A stretch of 64,000 bases of DNA from an uncultured Acidobacteriota bacterium (GCA_963723535.1 CAVRRE010000001.1:20765-84764); one strand, 5' to 3'; counted from the first letter of the stretch, positions 17,240 to 28,518 are shown. Numbers and translations are program-made. The notes: generated by a model from the letters alone, not told the origin.

Positions 17240-17896
17240 CTAGCCCTCGGGTGACCTCTCCGCAAGCACTCTCTCCGCACAGGCCTTGAGCAGTGCCGGG
17301 GTGCGCGGGGACTCTCGGACGCCGCGGAGGTCGTCGAGGCTGGCCCGGGTCAGAAGCGACAACCCGAGAGACACCGGCAGGTTCGGGTTCCGCAGGATCG
17401 CGCTCCGGACGCCCGGGCGCGCGCCCCATCGAGGGTGCTCGGCCAGAAGCGCGAGCGATTCGGGGCCGGCGCCGCGGGAGATTGCGGCCTGGATCACATC
17501 CGCCTCGATGGTGAAGCGGTTTTCGAGGACGGAAGCGAGGACGCGCGGGTCGGGGTCGAGCCGCAGGACGAGGAGAGTGCCCCTCCCGACGTTGCGGGCC
17601 AGGTCCACTTTTTCGGAAATCGCCATCTCGGAAAGGCGCCGCAGGAGGTCCTGGTCCGCCGCCCGCCGTATGGCCGGATGCACGCGAGCGTCCGCCGACA
17701 GGTGCGCCAGGTCACGCCAGAAGAGCGTCGCGACCAGCGCGAGCGCGTCCGTCCGCGGCGTCTTGGGATGAGCGGCCAGCGCCATCCGCACGGCATGGTG
17801 CTTCCGCACGGCCCGATCGCCGAGGATCTCCGCCAGCGTTTCGGAGGAGAGATTGGCCCTTCGAAGGAGCTTCAGGCACTCGCCCTCGGTTCTCAT
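17240..17896 (-). CDS. Conserved hypothetical helical-repeat protein, similar in style to 15316..16407
   Basis: ALAAHPKTP and [14 protein letters not shown] repeats. Confidence 0.7.
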
Positions 17897-18702
17897 GCGG
17901 TCGCCCGGGTTCTGCGGCAGGCCTCGACCAGGCTCCGGGCCAGCGCCTCGACCGCCCCGATGCGCTCCGCCCCGGCGTCTTCCGCGGCCGCGACGAGCGC
18001 GGAGCCCACGACGACGCCGTCCCCGAGCCGGGCAGCCCGCCGCGCGCTGTCCGGTGTCGAGATCCCGAACCCGATCGCGATGGGCAACTTGCCCGCGGCT
18101 TTACGAGCCCGCTCGACGGTCTGCCGCAGGTCCGCCGGAAGTGCGGCGCGGGCGCCCGTCGTTCCGCGCCGCGACACGACGTAAAGGAACCCGCTCGAGA
18201 GCCGGGCGGCTTCGCGCATCCGCTCGCGAGGAGAAGTCGGTGACGCGAGAAAGACGGTATCGAGTCCCGCGCGACGGAAGGGCCCGATGACCGGCGAGGC
18301 CTCTTCCGGAGGCAGATCCGTCAGGAGGGCGCCGTCGAAGCCGGCCGCGGCCGCCCGCCGTGCGGCCCTCGAAACCCCCATGCGGTGCACGGGATTCAGG
18401 TAGGTGAAGAGGACGAGTGCGAGACGGGTCTCCCGCCGGATGCGCTCCGCGATCGCGAAAACCGTCTCGAGCGTGGTCCCGCCGGCGAGCGCCCGGGAGG
18501 CGGCCCTCTGAAGCACCGGGCCATCGGCGATCGGGTCCGAGAACGGAACGCCGAGCTCCAGCACGTCCGCGCCGGCGCGCTCGAGCGCTTTCGCGAGATC
18601 GACCGTCGCGCGCGGCGTGGGGTCGCCCGCGGTGAGGTACGCGATGAAGGCCGCGCGGCCCTCGCCCCGGGCGCGCTCGAAGGCGCCGAGGAGGCGACTC
18701 AT
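17893..18702 (-). CDS. trpA: Tryptophan synthase alpha
   Basis: [29 protein letters not shown] and VVVGSALV. Confidence 0.95.
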
Positions 18703-19902
18703 GGCTTCGCTCTGGCGCTCGCCTTCGGCTCGCCGAGGGCGCGGACGACCTCGTCGAGGTCCTTGTCGCCGCGGCCGGAGAGGTTGACCAGAATCCACCG
18801 CGAGCGACGCCACCTGCTCGCGAGCCCTGCGGCAAAAGCGACCGCGTGGGCCGACTCGAGCGCCGGCAGGATGCCCTCGGTCTCGCAAAGAAGCCCGAAG
18901 CGCATCCAGGGCCTCCTGGTCCGACACTCTGGTGTAAGCGACCCGCCGCGCGTCGTGGAGCGCGGCGTGCTCGGGGCCCACGGCCGGGTAGTCGAGACCG
19001 GCCGAGATCGAGTGCGTCGAGAGCGTCTGCCCCGCCGCATCCTGCAGGAGCATCGTCCGCGTGCCGTGAAGGACGCCGACCGACCCTCCCGAAAACCGCG
19101 CCGCGTGATCGCCCGGACGGTCGCTCCTCCCCCCGGCCTCGACACCGTAGAGGGCGGAGCGCGAGCGCAGGAAAGCCGAAAAGATGCCGATCGCGTTCGA
19201 ACCGCCGCCCACGCAGGCGACGACGGCGTGCGGATCGCGGCCGGCGAGCCGGCGGAACTGGCGCCGCGCTTCCCGTCCGATCACGGCCTGAAACTCGCGC
19301 ACCATCGTCGGGTAGGGATGCGGGCCCAGCGCCGACCCGAGGACGTAGTGGGTCGACCCGACGTTTTCAGTCCAGTCCCGCATCGCCTCGTTGATCGCGT
19401 CCTTGAGGGTCTTCGAGCCCGCGTCGACGCCCACGACCTCGGCCCCCAGCAGGCGCATGCGCGAGACGTTCGGCGCCTGACGCGCCATGTCGGTCACGCC
19501 CATGTAGACGCGGCACGTGACGCCGAGCTTCGCGGCCGCGGCGGCCGTCGCCACGCCGTGCTGGCCGGCGCCGGTCTCGGCCACGACCCGCTCCTTGCCC
19601 ATGCGCCGGGCGAGGAGGACCTGGCCGAGGGCGTTGTTGAGCTTGTGCGCGCCGGTGTGGAGGAGGTCTTCCCGCTTCAGCGCGATCCGCGCTCCCCCGA
19701 GGCGCTCGGCGAGGCGATCCGCGACGGTCAGCGGCGTGGGCCGCCCCGCATAGGTGCGGAGCAGCTCGTCGAGCTCCGCTCGGAACCGGCGGTCGCGCCG
19801 GAACCGCGTGAACGCCCGATCGAGCTCGTCGAGCGGCGCCATGAGCGTCTCGGGAGCGAAGCGCCCGCCGTACTCGCCGAAGTACCCCTTGCGCCTAGGC
19901 AC
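18699..19902 (-). CDS. trpB: Tryptophan synthase beta, frameshift near 18900
   Basis: [52 protein letters not shown] and [10 protein letters not shown]. Confidence 0.95.
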
Positions 19903-20509
19903 GGTCGGCCCGCCGGACGGCCTCGAAGAACCGCTCGAGCTTGCGCCGGTCCTTGACTCCCGGCGCGCTTTCGACGCCGGAGGCGACGTCGACGCCTTCG
20001 GGGCGGAGCCGTCGAATGACCTCGCCGACGTTTTCGGGATCGAGGCCCCCGGCCACGAAGGCAGGCACCGGGAGCGGTCCGATCCGCTCGAGGGCCGCCC
20101 AGTCCGGCGCCTGGCCCCGGCCGGCGCTCGAGTCCCAGAGCACCGCCCGGCAACGCGCGAGGATCGGGGCCGGCGGCAGGCCCGCCCGGCCGGACTCGAC
20201 GGGCACAGCGGGCACGAGGTCGGCCTCGAGCCCCTCGAGGTCCTCGGCGCCGACAGGACGGTGAAGCTGGACGATTTGGAGCGCGGCCTCGCGGACGGCG
20301 CGGGCCACGTCCTCGCGCGATTCGGTCGCGAAGACACCGGCTCGCAGGACGCCCGCCGGCGCCCGGCTCGAGATCTCGCGCGCCCGCTCGAGCGTCAGCC
20401 GGCGCGGCGACGAGGCCACGAAGTTGAAGCCCAGGATCGACGCTCCGAGCTCGCAGGCGGCGGAGACGTCCTCGCTCCGCGTCAGGCCGCAGATCTTGAC
20501 GAAGGTCAT
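19895..20509 (-). CDS. trpF: Phosphoribosylanthranilate isomerase
   Basis: [20 protein letters not shown] and [16 protein letters not shown]. Confidence 0.95.
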
Positions 20510-21279
20510 CCCCGGAGCGCCCTCAGGAACTCCTCCGGATCCTCGGACCGCAGGAGGTGCTCGCCGACCAGGAAGGCCCGGTAGCCGGAGGCCGCGAGAC
20601 GCTCCAGGTCGGCGCGCCCGCGGATCCCGCTCTCGGCCAGCGGGACCGGTCCCTTCGGGAGCCTCCGGGCGAGCGACTCCAGGCGCCCGATGTCGGTCTC
20701 GAAGGTCTCGAGGTTGCGCGCGTTGACCCCGATGACGTCCGGTGCCACGGCCGCCGCCCGGTCGATCTCGGCTTCGTCGTGCGTCTCGACGACGACCGCG
20801 AGGCCGCGCTCCCTCGCGCCGCGGGCGAGCGAGGCCAGCTCGCCATCCGAGAGCGCGAGAACGATGAGAAGCACGGCGTCGGCGCCGAGCGAGACCGCGA
20901 AGTCGAGCTGCCGCTCGCTCACCACGAAGTCCTTCATCAGGACCGGAAGGCCCGAGATCTCTTTCGCCCGCGGCAGCCAGCCCGGCCTGCCTCCGAAATG
21001 GTCCTCTTCGACGACGACGGAGATCGCCGCGGCGTGTCCGCGCCGATAGAGCAGCCCGAACGTCTCGACCTTTCCGTCCGCGCCCGGAAGGATCTCTCCG
21101 GCCGACGGCGACTTCGCCTTGATCTCGGCCACGATCCGGTACCCGGGCTCGGACAGCGACGCCACGAAACGGGCGCCGTCGGTCGGCCGGCGCGGCGCCT
21201 CCACGCCGACTCCCGAATACTCGCCGCGCGTGAGTCTCGCCCGCTTGTCGGCCAGGATGCGCTGGAGAACGTCGCTCAT
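20506..21279 (-). CDS. trpC: Indole-3-glycerol phosphate synthase
   Basis: [35 protein letters not shown] and AESGI. Confidence 0.95.
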
Positions 21280-22280
21280 GCGGCGGCCGTCGCCTCCCGC
21301 AGGGACTCGAAGCTCCGCCGCGCATCGCCCGAGTCGATCGCGGTACGCGCCCGCTCGTAACCTTCCGGCAGGTTCCTCGCCCGGCCCTCGACCACGAGGG
21401 CCGCCGCCACGTTCAGAAGCACGGCCTCGCGCCGCGGGCCCGGCTCGCCCTCGAGCAGCCGCGCCAGCATCGCCGCGTTCGCCGCCGCGTCGCCTCCGGC
21501 GAGCGCCTCGACCTCGACCCGGGCCTGCCCGCAGCGCTTCGGCCTCGAGCCGCCACGGGCGCGTCCAGCCGTCTTCGACCTCGACGCCGAACGCGGCGAC
21601 TCCGGGCGTGAGCTCGTCGAGCCCGTTCTCGGAGTGAAAGACGATGGCGCGCTCGTTGCCGAGCGCCGCGAGCGCGTCGGCGAGCAGGCGCGTCAGGTCC
21701 GGCCGGCCGACGCCGATGAGCTGGCGCGTCGCGCCCGCCGGGTTCGCGAGCGGTCCGAGAGCGTTGAAGATCGTGCGGATGCCGAGCTCGCGGCGGACCG
21801 TACCGAGCTCCTTCATGGCCGGGTGAAACGACGGCGCGAAGAGGAAGACGAGACCCGTCTCGTCCAGGATCCGGCCCGCTCGATCAGGCTCGAGCTCGAC
21901 CGGGAGCCCGGCCGCCGCGAGCACGTCCGCCGAGCCCACCCGCGAGGAGATGGATCGGTTGCCGTGCTTCGCCACGGCGGCTCCCGCTCCGGCCGCGACG
22001 ATCGCCGTCGCCGTCGAGAGGTTGAAGAGGTCGCGGCCAAGCCCGCCCGGACCGCACGTATCGAGCAAGGGCGAGCGGCGCGTCGAGACCCGCCGCATCC
22101 GGCTCCGGAGCGCCGCCACCGCTCCCGCGATCTCCTCGGCCGTCTCGCCGCGGGTCGCGATCCCGAGAAGGATCGCGCCCTTCTGCGCCTCGGTCGCCTG
22201 GCCGTCCATGAGATCTCCGAAGGTGGCCTCCGCGAGCGGACGCGGCAGGGTCCGCCGCGCGGCCACGGTCTCCGGGTCAT
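21276..22280 (-). CDS. trpD: Anthranilate phosphoribosyltransferase, frameshifts near both ends
   Basis: DTCGPGG...[42 protein letters not shown] and GLDE. Confidence 0.92.
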
Positions 22281-22287
22281 GGTCGCC

Positions 22288-22392
22288 TGTGGGGCGGGGC
22301 TCGCCCCGCAACGGGCGCAGTCCGACCAAGGACGACCACGGCAGTAGGAGGCGCCGTCCGAAGGACGGCGACAACCCAGGGCCGCCCCTACA
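22288..22392. repeat. REP/REPIN- or MITE-like 105-bp element between trpG and trpD
   Basis: Terminal inverted repeats TGT(A)GGGGCGG ... CCGCCCC(T)ACA; internal GTGG/GTAG-headed palindromes (GCGGGGC-TC-GCCCCGC and CGCCGTCC-GAA-GGACGGCG). Confidence 0.45.
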
Positions 22393-22976
22393 TGCCGGAA
22401 GGCGTATGAGGCCAGCCTCAGAAAGTTCGCCAGGATTCGGTCGCCCTCCGGCGTCAGCACCGACTCCGGATGGAACTGGACGCCGAACGCCGGAAGCGAC
22501 CGATGCGCGAGGGCCATCACGAGCCCGTCCTCGCTTCGCGCGACGACGGCGAGCTCGGCCGGAAGGGTTTCCTCGCGAACCACGAGGGAATGGTATCGCC
22601 CGGCTTCGAAGGGCTGCGGCAACCCGTCGAAGAGTCCCGTGCCCGCGTGCGAGATCCTCGAGCTCTTGCCATGGCGCGGCGTCGGGGCGCGCTCGATGGT
22701 GCCTCCGTGACGGGCGGCGAGCGCCTGGTGTCCCAGACACACGCCGAGCAGCGGCACTCCCGCGCGCTCGGCCTCCGCGATCATCGGAATCGTTCGCCCC
22801 GCGCTCTCGGGCCGGCCCGGTCCCGGCGAGATCACGACCGCGCGGGGCCGCAGCGAGACGACCTCGTCCGGCTCGAAGCGATCGTTGCGCGCGACCCGGA
22901 CGTCGGCGTCCAGCCTGCCCAGGGCCTGGACGAGGTTGAACGTGAACGAGTCGTAGTTGTCGACCACGAAGATCAT
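22390..22976 (-). CDS. trpG: Anthranilate synthase component II (glutamine amidotransferase); stop position uncertain
   Basis: DNYDSFTFNL, ISPGPGRP, LGVCLGHQ, RYHSL and QFHPES. Confidence 0.92.
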
Positions 22977-24448
22977 GCGAACCACTCGCGCGCCAGGTCG
23001 ATCGCGCGAAAGAGCGCCGCGGCCTTGGCCTCGGCCTCGGCGTATTCCTTCTCGGCGACCGAGTCCGCGACGATGCCGGCCCCGGCCTGCACGCGCCAGA
23101 GCCCCCCCTCGACGACCGCCGTCCGGATCGCGATGGCCAGATCGCAGTTGCCGGCGGCGTCGAAGTAGCCGACAGCGCCGCCGTAGATCCCGCGCCGGCA
23201 TGCCTCCAGCGCATCGATCAGCTCCATGGCCCGGATCTTGGGCGCGCCCGTGAGCGTGCCCGCCGGAAAGCATGCGGCGAGCGCATCCGCCGGACCCGCG
23301 CCCTCCCGGAGGCGCCCGCGGACTTCGGAGACCAGATGCTGGACGTGGGAGAACTTCTCGACGTCGGCGAAGCGCGCGACCTCCACCGTCCCGACCTCGC
23401 AGACTCGCCCGAGGTCGTTGCGCGCCAGGTCCACGAGCATGACGTGCTCCGCTCGCTCCTTGGGGTCCTCCCTCAGGCGCTCCGCGAGCGCGTCGTCCTC
23501 CGACCTCGACTTTCCGCGGGGCACCGTGCCTGCGATCGGCCGCGTTTCGACCTGGCGCCCCCGGCAGCGGACGAGCATCTCGGGCGACGAGCCGAGGACG
23601 GTCGCTTCGCGGGTCTCGAGAAAGTAGAGGTACGGCGAAGGGTTGAGCGCGCGCAGCGCCCGGTACACGTCGAACGGGTCCACCGCGAGCCGGGCCGTCC
23701 AGCGCTGCGAGATCACGGCCTGGTAGACCTCTCCCTCCGCGATGGCCTCGCGCGTCGCCGCGACGGCGTCGAGGAAACGTTCGCGCGCCATCGCCGGAAC
23801 GAAGCGCACCTGCTCCGCGCGGCAGGCGGACGCGGGCGGGTCGGGCGCGGCGAGCAGCTCCTGGAGGCGATCGAGTCGGAGGATCGCGTCCGTGACCGTG
23901 CGCTCGACCTCGCCGTCGGAGCCCGCATCGAGCGTCGTCAGCAGAAGCACCCGCTGTCTCGGATGGTCGAAGGCCACGACCGCATCGAAGAGAAGAAAGA
24001 GCGCGTCGGGAATTTCGCCTTCTCGAGGCTGACGGTCCGGGATCGCCTCGAAGAGCCGCACGGCGTCGTAGGAGAGATAGCCCACCGCGCCCCGCGAGAG
24101 CGGCGGCAGCTCCGGATCCGCGAGAAACTCGTCCGGCCGGGCCAGGCGCTCGAGCGCCGCGAGCGGAGGCTCCTCCACGACCTCGCTCTTTCCTCCCCGC
24201 TCGAGACAGGTCTTCCCGTCGCGCACGGTCAGCCGCGCCGAGGGATCGACGCCGAGGAAGGTGTAGCGCGCGACCGCCTCGCCGCCCTCGACGCTCTCGA
24301 AAAGGAAAGCCTCGCGGCCGGGGCCGCGCATGCGCTGGAAGAGCATGACCGGCGTCACCAGGTCCGACGGAAACACCCGCGCCACCGGCACGCGCCGGCC
24401 GGTCCTCGCCCGCCCGAGAAAGTCGGCTCGCTCAGCGGCCCGCCTCAC
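22973..24448 (-). CDS. trpE: Anthranilate synthase component I
   Basis: NPSPY, GSSPE, PIAGT, KERAEHVMLVDLARNDLGR, FPAGTLTGAPK and QAGAGIVADS. Confidence 0.95.
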   Translation of the reverse strand: MRRAAERADFLGRARTGRRVPVARVFPSDLVTPVMLFQRMRGPGREAFLFESVEGGEAVARYTFLGVDPSARLTVRDGKTCLERGGKSEVVEEPPLAALERLARPDEFLADPELPPLSRGAVGYLSYDAVRLFEAIPDRQPREGEIPDALFLLFDAVVAFDHPRQRVLLLTTLDAGSDGEVERTVTDAILRLDRLQELLAAPDPPASACRAEQVRFVPAMARERFLDAVAATREAIAEGEVYQAVISQRWTARLAVDPFDVYRALRALNPSPYLYFLETREATVLGSSPEMLVRCRGRQVETRPIAGTVPRGKSRSEDDALAERLREDPKERAEHVMLVDLARNDLGRVCEVGTVEVARFADVEKFSHVQHLVSEVRGRLREGAGPADALAACFPAGTLTGAPKIRAMELIDALEACRRGIYGGAVGYFDAAGNCDLAIAIRTAVVEGGLWRVQAGAGIVADSVAEKEYAEAEAKAAALFRAIDLAREWFA

Positions 24449-25923
24449 GCGCGCCCGTCCCGCAGGATCGAGGTCACTTCGTCGAGCGTCACGCCCTCGA
24501 GGCCGAAGAGCTGCGCCTGGCGGACGGCCTGCGCCGCGAACATCTGCAAACCTTCGACGACGGGGCATTTTGCGGCGCGCGCCGCCCGGACCGTCGAGGT
24601 CTCCCGCCCGTCCCGCCGGTAGACACAGTCGAAGACGAGGGGATTCGGTTCCAGGAGGCTCGGCGGAATCGCCGGGGGGTCGTCGTCCTTCCAGCCCAGA
24701 GGCGTCGCGTTGACGTAGAGGTCCGCCTCGCTCGCGGCCAGATCTTCCCAGGCGAGTGAATCCACGCGCATCTCCTCCGCGAGTCGGTCCGCTTCCGCGT
24801 CGCGGCGGGCCGTCACCATGACCTCGTAGCCCAGCCGCCGGGCGGCCACGACGACGGCCCGCGCGGCGCCTCCCGCTCCCAGGACCACGGCGCTGCGTCC
24901 CTCCCCCGTTCCGTGGTCGGCGAGGGGGTCGAAGACTCCGTCGACGTCGGTGTTCTCGGCTCGCCACCCGGTCCGCTCGCGCACGAGCGTGTTGGAAGCA
25001 CCGATCCGCCGCACGTCCTCCGAGGGAGCGCCGACACGCGCCGCCTCCAGCTTCCAGGGCTGCGTTACGGCGAAGCCCCGCGCGGGCGGATCGAACGCGA
25101 TCTCGTGAGGCCTCTCCCGGCGGAAGTCGGACACCTGGAACGGAAGGTAGAGGTACGGAAGATCGCGGGCCCGGAAGAGCGCGTTGTGCAGGAAGGGTGA
25201 AAGCGACCGCGCCGTGCTTCCGGCGAGCACGCCGTAGAGCGCCTCGAGCGGGCGCGGGCGGTTCACCTCGTAGATCGAGAGCAGATCGCCGATCGGCACC
25301 TGCCCCGGCGCCGTCTCCCGCTCGACCGGCCCGTAGACGAGGGCAGCGCCGAAGAGCGCCGAAAGGACCCGACCGGGAGCGCTCGCCGGTCCCATCGGAA
25401 AGATCGCCGCGGCGCCGTCGCGGGCGTCCCTCTGCAGCTCCGCGATCCGGAGGCTCCCGGCGACGTCGGGGACGCCGGCCACGAGTTTGACGGCCCGGGC
25501 GCGCGCCTGCGCGCATCGCCGAGACTTTCGCGTCCCAGTCCGCCGGCAGGGAGAAGGGCGAGTGCAGAGACACGATCACGCGCTCGCGCTCGGGGAATCG
25601 GCCGGGATCCGAGAGCAGGCCCCGCGCGTACTCGACGTCGACCGTCGCTCCCGCGGCGTAGCTCTCCTCGACGAGGCGCGCGTACTCCTCGGCCGTGCCG
25701 CTGAAGTTGCCGCCCTCGGCAAGCGAGCGCCACGTGAGGATCACAGGGCGCGGGTCTGAGATCGAGCAACGTCGCGGGCGGGATCGGGCGATCCGCCGAG
25801 GTCCATCCGGAACTCGATCGCGTTGGCCGCCGCCGGGACGCGCGCGACCAGCCGCCTCGCGTCCTCGGCGTCTTTCGGCGCGAGCGAGGCGATGTACGCC
25901 GGAATCGGAAGGACTCTGTCCAT
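24445..25923 (-). CDS. aroE: Fused type I 3-dehydroquinate dehydratase / shikimate dehydrogenase (AroDE), frameshifted
   Basis: N-terminal IEFRMDL, TWRSLAEGGNF, VIVSLH, VKL and PMG...R dehydratase motifs. C-terminal SLSPFLHN, VTQPWK, GASNT, NTDVDG, LGAGGAARA and NATPLG motifs. Confidence 0.85.
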
Positions 25924-25930
25924 CGAAATC

Positions 25931-25961
25931 AAAAACCCCCGAGCCCTTCGGGCCGGGGGTT
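25931..25961 (-). terminator. Attenuator terminator immediately upstream of the aroDE start
   Basis: Minus strand AACCCCCG-GCCC-GAA-GGGC-T-CGGGGGTT-TTT; the U-tract ends 7 nt before the ATG at 25923. Confidence 0.85.
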
Positions 25962-26020
25962 CTCATTCTCTCGTCTGGTTTCGCCCCGCCCGAACGGATT
26001 CGGCAGGGCGCGACTTGGCC

Positions 26021-26068
26021 CTACCGGGTCTCCCGCCACCACCAGTTCGACGAGGAATGACGCGTCAT
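26021..26068 (-). CDS. trpL: trp operon leader peptide MTRHSSSNWWWRETR
   Basis: 15-codon ORF with three consecutive TGG codons directly upstream of the attenuator hairpins and the trp operon. Confidence 0.88.
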   Translation of the reverse strand: MTRHSSSNWWWRETR

Positions 26069-27298
26069 GGAGGGGCGATCATCCCGCCGGCGGGTGTGGG
26101 TGTCAAGGGAGGGGACGTCGGCGTCGCGGGAGGCCTTCGCCTTGTTGGCTTCGACGCTGCGGAACGAGAGCGGCAGCAGGAATTGCGCGGTCGGAGGCGG
26201 CGTCGCGCCTTCGAATCGAATCTCCATACCGCGGGCATCGGCTCGATAGACGTACTCCGCCGACGGGCACGCGGTCGACACAACGTTTCCCATTCGCGCG
26301 GGCCAACGCCCCTCGGCGTCCTGCTCTTTCGCCAGGCGGAGCCGCAGAATCTCCAGCGTGAGCTCTCGGTCAACAGCGAGCCTGGCGGCGCGCCGGACGG
26401 GATTCACCATGTTCGGGAGAGTGATTTCGCGGTAGTGCGTCACGCGCCTCGAGGGCCACGGGATCCGATGAGGGGAAGAGCTCCCGTTCGGCCAACTTCC
26501 AGATGCCCTCATCGTCCAGGCTGGCTCCCTCGCAGGGACCGAGCTTCTTGAGGCCGGCGGCGATCGCGGCCGGCGCCTTCCGCGCCGTCTCTTCCCACGG
26601 GTCGGTCGAGGGAAACAGGTTCCCAGGTTCCCTCGGTTCCGGATCGGACGCGTACGCATCGAGCATGTCGCTCCAGGATCGGTCGCTCGAGAGACGATCG
26701 ATCCACGGAGAGGAGAGCTCGGCAGCTTCCGAAGCACACCCGCTTGCCACCCACTCGACCTGGCCGCGATGAGCTGCATGATCAGCAGTGGCGCTTCCGC
26801 CGCGATGCGACCGAGCGACCAGGAGGCTTCGAGCAACCGCTCCGCTTCGATCTCGCGACCTTCGCGAGTCTCGACGAGGGCCGCCGCGAGAAGAACGCTC
26901 TGCAGACGGATCGACGGCGTGAGGGCGGGCGTGTTCACCGTGCCGTCTTTGTTCAGCTCGTCCTTCCCCCAGTCGGGCGCTTGACGCTCCAGCGCGAAGA
27001 CGACCGCCTCGAGCGCCTCCTTGCGCTCCTCGAGGTACCGCTTCAGAGTCTCCGGCGGTTCCCCGATCGACTCGTCGGGGATGGCGAGCTGAGACTCGAG
27101 CCAGGCCGCGGCGCCGGACTCGGAATAGGCGACGGAGGGGTCAGACGTCGCCGCCCTGGCGGCCTGCTCGAACGGGATCCCGAGCTCGCCCCCTCGCTCT
27201 ACGAGAACCTCTGCGGCGGCGTTTCGCTCGATCGGACGCTCGCCGACCGCCCCGGCCGCGAGCGCGAGAAGTCCGAGCAGACTGGCCGCGGGAATCAT
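26065..27298 (-). CDS. Secreted/membrane hypothetical protein, paralog of 27295..28518, frameshifted
   Basis: Signal-like MIPAASLLGLLALAAGA; C-terminal LRLAKEQDAEGRWP...CP...Y...FEG matches the neighbouring gene. Confidence 0.6.
26078..26106 (-). promoter_or_regulatory. Putative sigma70 promoter for trpL
   Basis: TTGACA-N17-GATGAT, with the trpL ATG 9 nt further on (near-leaderless). Confidence 0.6.
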
Positions 27299-28518
27299 TG
27301 AGGGCTCGGCGTGGGCGTCGGCGGCGGAGCGCTCCGGAAGGTCAGAGGCAGAATCAACCCTCGTTCGACGGCGGGAGCCCGACCTTCGAAGGCCAGGGTC
27401 ACGTCGCCCGAGGGGCTTCGCTGATACTTCCAGAAGCTCCCGGGACAAACGGACGATTCGAGATTCGCCGGAAGCGCCGGCCAGCCTCCATCGCGGGAGG
27501 CCGCCTTCTCGCTGCGCGCCTCAAGGACGAGCGCCGTCAGCTCGGCGTCGAGCAGATGGCGGTGCCAGCGATTCAGCCCGTCCAGAGAATTCTCGGAGCC
27601 CGTCGTCGCCATGATTTCGATCTCGCCGGGCTCGCTCCTCGCGGCGACTCTCCAGTTCCGGTCCAGATCCTGGCGGGTCCAGCCGCAGGGGTCGCGAGCC
27701 GCGAGACCCGCGACGAATCGGCGGTTGACCCGCGTCATGCCCCGCACACCCTCCAGCTCCTCGGCGTCGCTCGCCAGGTGCCAGGCGTCGTTCTGGACAG
27801 CGGCCAGGAAGGATTCGAAGAACGCTCGTCCTCGGAACCGTTCGACCCACACGGAAGCGGGCGAATCGACCTTGCGAAGCAGGCCCACGACCAGCCGCGC
27901 CGCGTTCTGGACGAGGATCTGCGAGACCATCTCCGGACGCGACGCCAGGCTCTGGACGAGGATCCACATGGCTTCGACCGTCTGGAGCGCGGCGTCGGGA
28001 TCCGGCCTTCGTGCCTCGTCGAGCGCTCGGGCGGCGAGAACGAGCTGGAGCCGCACCTGTCCCAGAACGTTGGGCGTCGGCGCATAGAGCCCGGCAGTCA
28101 CGTCGATGTCCCAGGCGATCTCGCGGCGACCGAGCGCGACGGCCACAATCGCGTCGAGCGTCGCCCCGTGCTCGGAGAGATAGCCCTTCACGGCCGCGCC
28201 CGGCGCATCGACGCGCTCGCTCGCGCCCTCCAGCTGCTGATCGACGTACTGGCGGATCGCCGGGGCAACAGCCTGGTAGGCCGTCGCGGCCGCCGCATCC
28301 GGATGGTCGCGACGCTCGTCCTTCGGCGCGAGGTCGATGCCGAGACGCGCCGTGAGCGCCTCCAGCTCCAATGCGACCCTCGAGGCCGGCGCTTTCGGAA
28401 AGGCGGTTGTGAATGCTTCGAACGAGGCGACCGGTCCGGGAGGCCGCCATTCCTCCGCGGGCGTCATCGGAACCAACAGCATCGACGACACGACGGCCGC
28501 GGCGACGCCTCGAAGCAT
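27295..28518 (-). CDS. Secreted hypothetical protein
   Basis: 407-aa ORF with signal peptide; C-terminal EARSEKAASRDGGWP...CP...Y...FEG. Confidence 0.7.
   Translation of the reverse strand: MLRGVAAAVVSSMLLVPMTPAEEWRPPGPVASFEAFTTAFPKAPASRVALELEALTARLGIDLAPKDERRDHPDAAAATAYQAVAPAIRQYVDQQLEGASERVDAPGAAVKGYLSEHGATLDAIVAVALGRREIAWDIDVTAGLYAPTPNVLGQVRLQLVLAARALDEARRPDPDAALQTVEAMWILVQSLASRPEMVSQILVQNAARLVVGLLRKVDSPASVWVERFRGRAFFESFLAAVQNDAWHLASDAEELEGVRGMTRVNRRFVAGLAARDPCGWTRQDLDRNWRVAARSEPGEIEIMATTGSENSLDGLNRWHRHLLDAELTALVLEARSEKAASRDGGWPALPANLESSVCPGSFWKYQRSPSGDVTLAFEGRAPAVERGLILPLTFRSAPPPTPTPSPQ

Follow-up and report, generated by a model that had tools for sequence, protein, structure and literature searches.

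A putative tryptophan-sensing leader-peptide attenuator with five alternately pairing RNA segments precedes an aroDE-trp operon in uncultured Acidobacteriota

Organization of the locus

The stretch of DNA analyzed here, 64,000 nucleotides (nt) from an uncultured Acidobacteriota bacterium (GCA_963723535.1, CAVRRE010000001.1:20765-84764; hereafter the window, to whose full length all coordinates refer), carries on its minus strand a biosynthetic operon with the gene order aroDE-trpEGDCFBA (trp block 17896..24400). The first gene is an aroD-aroE fusion, recognized by the Pfam domains PF01487 and PF08501, for which an intact homologue was also scanned, and followed by trpEGDCFBA, where trpE and trpG match anthranilate synthase I and II, in line with a preliminary description of the region that had placed aroDE first. 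Directly upstream of it lie a promoter, a short open reading frame (ORF) with three tandem Trp codons, and five RNA segments, A to E, which we predict to pair each with its neighbor (A:B, B:C, C:D and D:E), the last pair and its U tract forming a terminator (Table 1). All features of this element are read on the minus strand. Judged by its sequence, the element is very probably a tryptophan-sensing leader-peptide attenuator. The explanation that in our view accounts best for the data, and which we consider likely, is transcription attenuation mediated by the ribosome, with charged tRNA-Trp as the signal and a five-segment relay as the switch.

Table 1. Positions of the leader elements and genes of the aroDE-trp locus
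Feature	Position	Strand	Remarks
-35 hexamer TTGACA	26101..26106	-	promoter scan
-10 hexamer GATGAT	26078..26083	-	17-nt spacer to -35; 9 nt before leader ATG
trpL-like leader ORF, MTRHSSSNWWWRETR	26021..26068	-	15 codons; ATG 26068, stop TAG 26023-26021
Three tandem Trp codons (WWW, regulatory)	26036..26044	-	within leader ORF
Segment A, CGGUAGGGCC	26017..26026	-	core CGGTAGGGC, 26026-26018; contains stop codon; putative partner B
Segment B, CGCCCUGCCG	26001..26010	-	core GCCCTGCCG, 26009-26001; putative partner A or C
Segment C, UUCGGGCGGGGCG	25982..25994	-	core TTCGGGCGGGG, 25994-25984; putative partner B (anti-antiterminator) or D (antiterminator)
Segment D, ACCCCCGGCCCGAA	25947..25960	-	core CCCCGGCCCGAA, 25958-25947; predicted terminator 5' arm and loop
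Segment E and U5, GGGCUCGGGGG	25931..25946	-	E = GGGCTCGGGGG, 25946-25936; predicted terminator 3' arm; T5 tract 25935-25931
aroDE (3-dehydroquinase I + shikimate dehydrogenase), first operon gene	24445..25923	-	Pfam PF01487, PF08501
trpE	about 22973-24400	-	Pfam domains, ORFs
trpG	about 22418-22967	-	Pfam domains, ORFs
trpD	about 21534-22266	-	Pfam domains, ORFs
trpC	about 20509-21267	-	Pfam domains, ORFs
trpF	about 19898-20500	-	Pfam domains, ORFs
trpB	about 18864-19752	-	Pfam domains, ORFs
trpA	about 17896-18681	-	Pfam domains, ORFs
ORF ending with the leader peptide	26021-27448	-	475 aa; passes through the promoter
ORF upstream of it	27295-28518	-	407 aa; paralogue of the 475-aa ORF

A leader ORF with its own promoter

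The preliminary description had listed a TTGACA-N17-GATGAT promoter, the leader ORF, segments A to E and a U-tail, and all of these were found at the positions claimed for them; the promoter is the only sigma-70-like site in 25000-27500, with 0.0 such sites expected in shuffled sequences. Between the -10 hexamer and the leader ATG at 26068 there is no Shine-Dalgarno (SD) sequence. The start codon follows the -10 hexamer at a distance of exactly 9 nt in the leaders of family f1 (the family of the window) and family f3, as well as in the sequence-diverged leaders of family f2, all of which lack an SD sequence. Of 76 distinct relatives, 69 have a TTGAC motif 35-40 nt, mostly 38-40 nt, 5' of the start codon of the leader. 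A spacing of 9 nt implies a 5' untranslated region of only ~0-3 nt, and the leader mRNA is thus probably leaderless or nearly so, starting within ~3 nt of the ATG. While the N-terminus of the leader peptide varies among relatives, the Trp run, the stop codon and the sequence after the stop are kept.

In the ORF list this mini-gene is hidden because it is fused to the upstream 475-aa frame, which crosses the promoter and has the leader peptide as its C-terminal end, just as the preliminary description had it. The fusion allows a reading without any attenuator, in which WWWRETR simply closes the 475-aa protein encoded upstream and D:E is the terminator of that gene; the frame in the window is open over 499 codons up to a TAG. 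Among relatives, however, the open frame upstream of the leader measures anything from 14 to >500 codons, with an in-frame stop 14-37 codons 5' of the leader in about one third of the loci, and this variable length suggests that the fusion in the window is a chance outcome of a stop-poor, GC-rich frame. The upstream gene itself also varies by locus, which indicates that the small ORF is a gene of its own: it is cysS in L007, L013 and all f2 loci, and cysS lies either in another frame or in frame with the leader, in which case a stop codon of its own ends it before the promoter. With the promoter at a fixed distance from the ATG, and with the regulatory codons following the downstream operon and not the upstream gene (see below), the reading without an attenuator is already contradicted, and we consider it extremely improbable.

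The two ORFs upstream of the leader, of 475 and 407 aa, are arranged in tandem and are paralogous; neither has a match in Pfam. The middle of the 475-aa ORF seems to be out of frame relative to its 407-aa paralogue.

Regulatory codons follow the content of the operon

We compared the leader peptides of relatives with the content of the operons behind them, as called by tblastn with Pfam-verified queries. The Trp run, whose conservation the preliminary description had proposed as a check, is either kept in relatives or replaced by codons that match the operon content. Wherever at least 2.5 kb of sequence is available downstream, a W-only leader (...WWWRE..R) is followed by aroDE-trpE..., while leaders of the HHWHH type (e.g. 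MNMALPSVTHHWHHEVDR) precede aroDE-hisZ... in 6 of 6 cases; one of these operons (G145) was verified in full and reads aroDE-hisZGDCBHAFIE-trpEGDCFBA. Genus g8 has two copies per genome, one with a leader ending in ...WWRLEKRR on aroDE-trp and one with MSLAAVFLARHPHHHEVNG (HPHHH) on hisZGDCB. The f3 leader ...WYWYWSDTR (L128) stands before aroDE-trpEGDCFBA with a DAHP synthase gene at the end of the operon. Two types of leader occur in family f5: the first, MRATSSWWWYCR, precedes aroDE-trpE, and the second, rich in Phe, Tyr and Trp codons (...FYRNSYYWF... and ...NWFYYGYYS), precedes a DAHP synthase gene. Finally, the f2 leaders HWHGHH, HWHSHH and WHWHH head an aroDE-his-trp super-operon. These matches go back to a few evolutionary events rather than to dozens of independent ones, but all of them point in the same direction. 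The codon run is the only part of the element that changes with operon content, which suggests translation as the sensor; this match, as read from the sequences, is the strongest evidence that we have for it.

The same observation bears on the view that a trans-acting factor, i.e. a TRAP-like protein, an uncharged tRNA bound by a T-box, or a riboswitch, chooses between C:D and D:E. We found nothing that would specifically favor such a factor. In Rfam scans of the window at gathering scores, and of the leader region (25850-26150) with a permissive cutoff of E<=10, no family reaches its threshold, and neither T-box, TRAP-site nor known aptamer families are among the matches. The best match is His_leader (RF00514), whose 17.1 bits (E = 1.4) fall short of its gathering score, 49, while Trp_leader (RF00513) gives no match at the gathering score in the window and is absent among the E<=10 matches for 25850-26150. 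Given these scans, and given that the codon run of the small ORF is the sole part that changes with operon content, we regard a trans-acting factor as very improbable.

Several individual loci deserve mention with respect to operon content. In the two-copy genomes G242, G238 and G411 (L135, L137, L139 versus L136, L138), the HPHHH copy is found on hisZGDCB without aroDE, and the WW copy on aroDE-trp. At L083 (DASWIB010000176.1, a short contig) the leader reads MTRPLRSIAHHGHHQGNR, the central Trp being changed to Gly, and hisZ follows directly, without aroDE. L131 (G410:C38) and L132 (G272:C97) are distant relatives of the scaffold with F/Y/W-rich leaders, in which the DAHP synthase gene comes after ~100 uncharacterised codons. 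At L127 (G145:C3:276100-296099) and at the f2 loci L150-L152, a 16-kb aroDE-hisZGDCBHAFIE-trpEGDCFBA operon is placed under one mixed His/Trp leader. The his-trp super-operon, present in two families of the order, may be ancestral to the aroDE-trp operon of the window.

Five RNA segments and a predicted intrinsic terminator

The terminator hairpin is GC-rich and U5-tailed, with a predicted folding energy of -23.7 kcal/mol (z = -3.7), and is predicted to act as an intrinsic terminator; the aroDE ATG at 25923 starts 7 nt past the T tract, which confirms the placement of a U-tailed terminator at this distance from aroDE in the preliminary description. The predicted terminator is conserved across 84 aligned loci, and almost all loci, the diverged f2 and f5 among them, keep a GC-rich stem with T4-T6 directly after it. 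For the stretch from B to the U-tail the folding energy is -46.6 kcal/mol (z = -4.5), which 0 of 200 shuffled sequences attain. Each of the four neighbor hairpins is stable in 71 of the 71 leaders analyzed, with mean energies (and standard deviations) of -19.1 (1.6) kcal/mol for A:B, -19.1 (1.4) for B:C, -21.9 (2.9) for C:D and -22.0 (2.9) for D:E; the corresponding values in the window are -16.9, -19.0, -19.0 and -22.4 kcal/mol. A further hairpin, CGGG/CCCG between WWW and A, was set aside, having 4 base pairs only and being inconsistently conserved.

Alignments of the leaders are consistent with the antiterminator state. In A:B, 97.5-97.8% of the alignment cells are paired, with a variable loop, and for A:B and C:D together the value is 94.8%, as compared to <=58% when the partners are slid against each other. 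The MAFFT alignment contains 28 double-sided changes in A:B and C:D, against 14.4 in shuffled alignments (equaled in 0 of 500); when the alignment is fitted instead to the terminator as the competing fold, there are still 30 such changes, against 15.5 in shuffles. Covarying pairs (UA, GC, AU, CG, UG) connect the 5' flank of C with the terminator loop, i.e. the loop-proximal part of C:D, and this covariation supports a C:D antiterminator that is exclusive with D:E through the common D. The G-to-A change in C and the C-to-U change in D of the His-only copies were not counted as compensatory, since they require a shift in register.

For A:B and B:C the best support, at the level of sequence, comes from family f2, whose segments differ from those of the window (e.g. 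GCCGGCGGU / ACCGCCGGAC / GUCCGGAGGG / CCCCUCCGGAC / GGAGGGG). The f2 leaders nonetheless predict the same chain of five segments, with A directly after the stop codon.

Proposed switch between termination and read-through

We propose that the five segments act as a relay which transmits the position of the ribosome on the leader ORF to the terminator. When tryptophan is plentiful, the ribosome would reach the UAG inside A and cover A to the edge of B; B would then be free as C emerges, B:C would form, and D would be left to E, so that the terminator forms and polymerase stops 7 nt before aroDE. When tryptophan is scarce, the ribosome would stall at WWW, 12-18 nt 5' of A, and A would stay free; A:B would form first, the free C would pair with D as D emerges, and E would be left without a partner, resulting in read-through into aroDE-trpEGDCFBA, where the freed GGGGG of E may act as the SD sequence of aroDE. 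Folding order, masking by the ribosome and the response in vivo are parts of the model that we infer from the leader sequences.

Predicted folds and spacings agree with this scheme. Before E has been transcribed, and as long as A is free, A:B and C:D fold in 71 of 71 leaders; with A masked, the full-length RNA of the window folds as B:C and D:E. Segment A begins 12-18 nt (mode 15) past the first base of the final regulatory codon, and B begins 10-15 nt (mode 13) past the first base of the stop codon. Counted from the first base of the codon in the A site, a ribosome covers about 13 nt in the 3' direction; a shield of this size, together with the spacings, means that a stalled ribosome would spare A, while a ribosome at the stop codon would mask A up to B.

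A classical, even-numbered arrangement would instead let the stretch of Trp codons pair with B, a stalled ribosome mask that stretch, and leave A:B without a role. Such a pairing can be drawn in the window, where UGGUGGUGGCG and CGCCCUGCCG may form 10 base pairs as part of a -22.4 kcal/mol fold. It would, however, give the wrong sign of regulation, as masking of the Trp stretch would free B for C and favor D:E, leading to termination upon starvation. The HHWHH, HPHHH, WYWYW and f2 leaders moreover differ in their nucleotides in this part while A:B is kept, and we rejected the pairing of the Trp-codon stretch with B as a conserved feature, since the His/Tyr variants and f2 lack it. The even-numbered arrangement is in our opinion very unlikely.

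The possible use of GGGGG as an SD sequence leads to another alternative, in which control is mainly or solely translational: D:E would hide the GGGGG of aroDE, C:D would free it, and the U tract would be incidental. No SD sequence stands between the terminator and the aroDE start, either in the window (25921-25946) or at homologous sites, and nothing ahead of aroDE resembles one except GGGGG in E; this run is found 8-12 nt upstream of the start codon in the window and in relatives, many of which start aroDE with TTG rather than with the ATG of the window, and a precedent is provided by mycobacterial Cys small ORFs, which act by sequestering the SD sequence (bioRxiv 10.1101/834739). GGGGG may serve aroDE in this way, and if it does, antitermination would also unmask the aroDE ribosome-binding site. 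The conserved GC-rich stem followed by T4-T6, present in f2 and f5 as well, is on the other hand the signature of an intrinsic terminator, and the translational and transcriptional layers are compatible, not mutually exclusive. We thus consider it unlikely that regulation is mainly or solely translational, and retain transcription attenuation as the preferred explanation.

A number of observations weigh against the proposed switch. A:B, B:C and D:E have stems that hardly vary, and covariation within f1 and f3 neither supports nor rejects them; near-invariant stem cores are expected, though, because each segment must match two partners. A stall at the third Trp codon in the window would place the ribosome over the first 1-2 nt of A. 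When A is masked and E is still missing, B:C is preferred in only 45 of 71 leaders, while C:D is the minimum free energy structure in 26 of 71, and in the window itself C:D is marginally favored over B:C under these conditions, the two being near-isoenergetic; B:C must then win by forming first during transcription, where C would meet B ~25 nt of transcription before D exists. Furthermore, the full-length RNA at equilibrium prefers the terminator state even with A free (-51.3 vs -38.0 kcal/mol). Since the terminator state is the thermodynamic optimum, the antiterminator must act kinetically; classical attenuators likewise have an equilibrium preference for the terminator, the same as the element in the window. 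Finally, the leader frame is disrupted in 2 of the first 20 relatives, L009 (G001) and L010 (G021).

In one of these two loci there is an early TAA plus an insertion, in the other the ATG and WWW are offset by 1 nt in frame; the RNA scaffold is intact in both despite the broken leader ORF. The disrupted leaders could be assembly errors or decaying leaders.

Taken together, the relay logic of the preliminary description is supported, with qualifications: formation of A:B and C:D with A free, the covariation in C:D and the spacings are in its favor, whereas the preference for B:C with A masked is confined to 45 of the 71 leaders, and the switch would be kinetic. We consider the specific five-segment switching logic, as derived from the sequences, to be favored with reasonable but clearly lower confidence than the identification of the element as an attenuator.

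Conservation and distribution

A blastn search with the 190-nt leader region gave matches in 28 of 41 relatives. When a strict three-part pattern, composed of the cores of A, B and C, was searched in one genome each of 185,579 species, it was found at 67 loci, all in genomes titled Acidobacteriota or in metagenome-assembled genomes (MAGs) of Thermoanaerobaculia. A covariance model built from 72 distinct leaders (R1) recovered diverged copies that the pattern had missed; it has matches in 67 of 401 genomes of this class, with bit scores up to 132, and finds a single copy per genome in nearly all sampled genomes of f1 and f3, two families of Thermoanaerobaculia. R1 has no match in the sister family f2, and only weak matches elsewhere in the class and phylum; f2 thus constitutes a third family with the same architecture and a different sequence. 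ORF, promoter spacing, five segments and terminator are conserved in >80 loci in total. As far as can be judged from sequence, the attenuator family is real, conserved and lineage-specific.

In its widest form, our interpretation is that of an order-wide family of probably leaderless, odd-parity attenuators, in which the terminating ribosome would be the effector and co-transcriptional folding would default to read-through, opposite to E. coli. In this view the joining or splitting off of his, trp and aro genes, in a super-operon headed by aroDE, would have gone along with repeated re-coding of one scaffold (W, H, H+W, W+Y, F/Y/W). We would give this complete scenario about an even chance of being correct.

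Frame of aroDE in the window

The aroD-aroE fusion is read in three frames in the assembly of the window. As compared to the closest relative, L002 (84% identity), aroD contains three single-base indels, at ~25796, 25757 and 25511 on the minus strand. The source genome is an 18-contig assembly scored as 66% complete, while the relatives are long-read MAGs; for this reason we believe that the indels are most likely assembly errors and do not indicate a pseudogene.

Comparison with known attenuators

The proposed mechanism is of a known kind, like that of the trp, his, leu and phe attenuators. Like the trp leader of E. coli and Salmonella (RF00513), the element has a short ORF in which Trp codons stand in tandem and, ahead of the first biosynthetic gene, a predicted intrinsic terminator that is mutually exclusive with an antiterminator; as there, the position of the translating ribosome would decide between the two. 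There is no match to RF00513 in sequence or structure, however, and the layouts differ: there are five segments here versus four in E. coli (1:2 / 2:3 / 3:4), and the Trp codons lie 5' of the first segment, while in E. coli they lie inside segment 1. In our model the stalled ribosome would mask nothing and the terminating ribosome would mask A, unlike in E. coli. The ORF here also lacks an SD sequence, its start lies 9 nt past the -10 hexamer, and aroDE is the first gene. An untranslated E. coli trp leader super-attenuates; an odd-numbered relay, in contrast, predicts read-through, and not super-attenuation, when translation of the leader is abolished.

The preliminary description had seen one more relay step than in E. 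coli as the distinguishing feature. The five segments bear this out, but longer relays are known, and it is the odd number that is unusual. The his leader of Salmonella has six segments, with A:B, C:D and E:F opposed to B:C and D:E in the model of its function. Like the relay proposed here, the his leader of Salmonella and E. coli (RF00514) uses a chain of helices to relay the position of the ribosome to a distal terminator, and relatives of the window carry His-codon leaders on his operons; it differs in its even number of segments, in having the His codons inside the first of them, and in showing no homology, as reflected in its Rfam score.

In C. glutamicum, a trpL leader precedes trpEGDCFBA and a Phe-Tyr-Phe leader, aroR, precedes a DAHP synthase operon (Neshat et al. 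2014, summarised in PMC11802643). The F/Y/W-rich f5 leaders before DAHP synthase genes are a parallel to aroR, albeit in another phylum and without any relation in sequence, and here a single scaffold serves trp, his, his+trp and aro+trp operons alike, headed by aroDE. In actinobacterial trp attenuators, segments with multiple interactions are highly conserved (PMC1262725). In mycobacteria, leaderless polycysteine small ORFs control translation by unmasking a ribosome-binding site (bioRxiv 10.1101/834739). The present element would share with them a leaderless sensory small ORF as the first cistron and control of the operon by stalling at codons for the end product of the pathway, with the difference that the stalled ribosome there blocks an RNA structure, whereas here there is a U-tailed terminator and we predict that a stalled ribosome leaves the structure free.

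Our literature searches found attenuators in Acidobacteria undescribed, apart from a statistical mention of leader genes. The present element adds an uncultured acidobacterial class to the range of leader-peptide attenuation; neither Rfam nor the literature searched holds such an element for this class. ORF callers overlook leader ORFs of this kind, which are fused to an upstream frame in GC-rich genomes, and R1 could be used to annotate them. The occurrence of the same scaffold with Trp, His, His/Trp, Trp/Tyr and Phe/Tyr/Trp codons amounts to a clean natural experiment on how an attenuator is reprogrammed when operons fuse or split. Compared to the Trp_leader and His_leader families of Rfam, the predicted layout would differ in four respects: an odd number of segments, regulatory codons upstream of the first segment, masking by the terminating ribosome, and a probably leaderless ORF.

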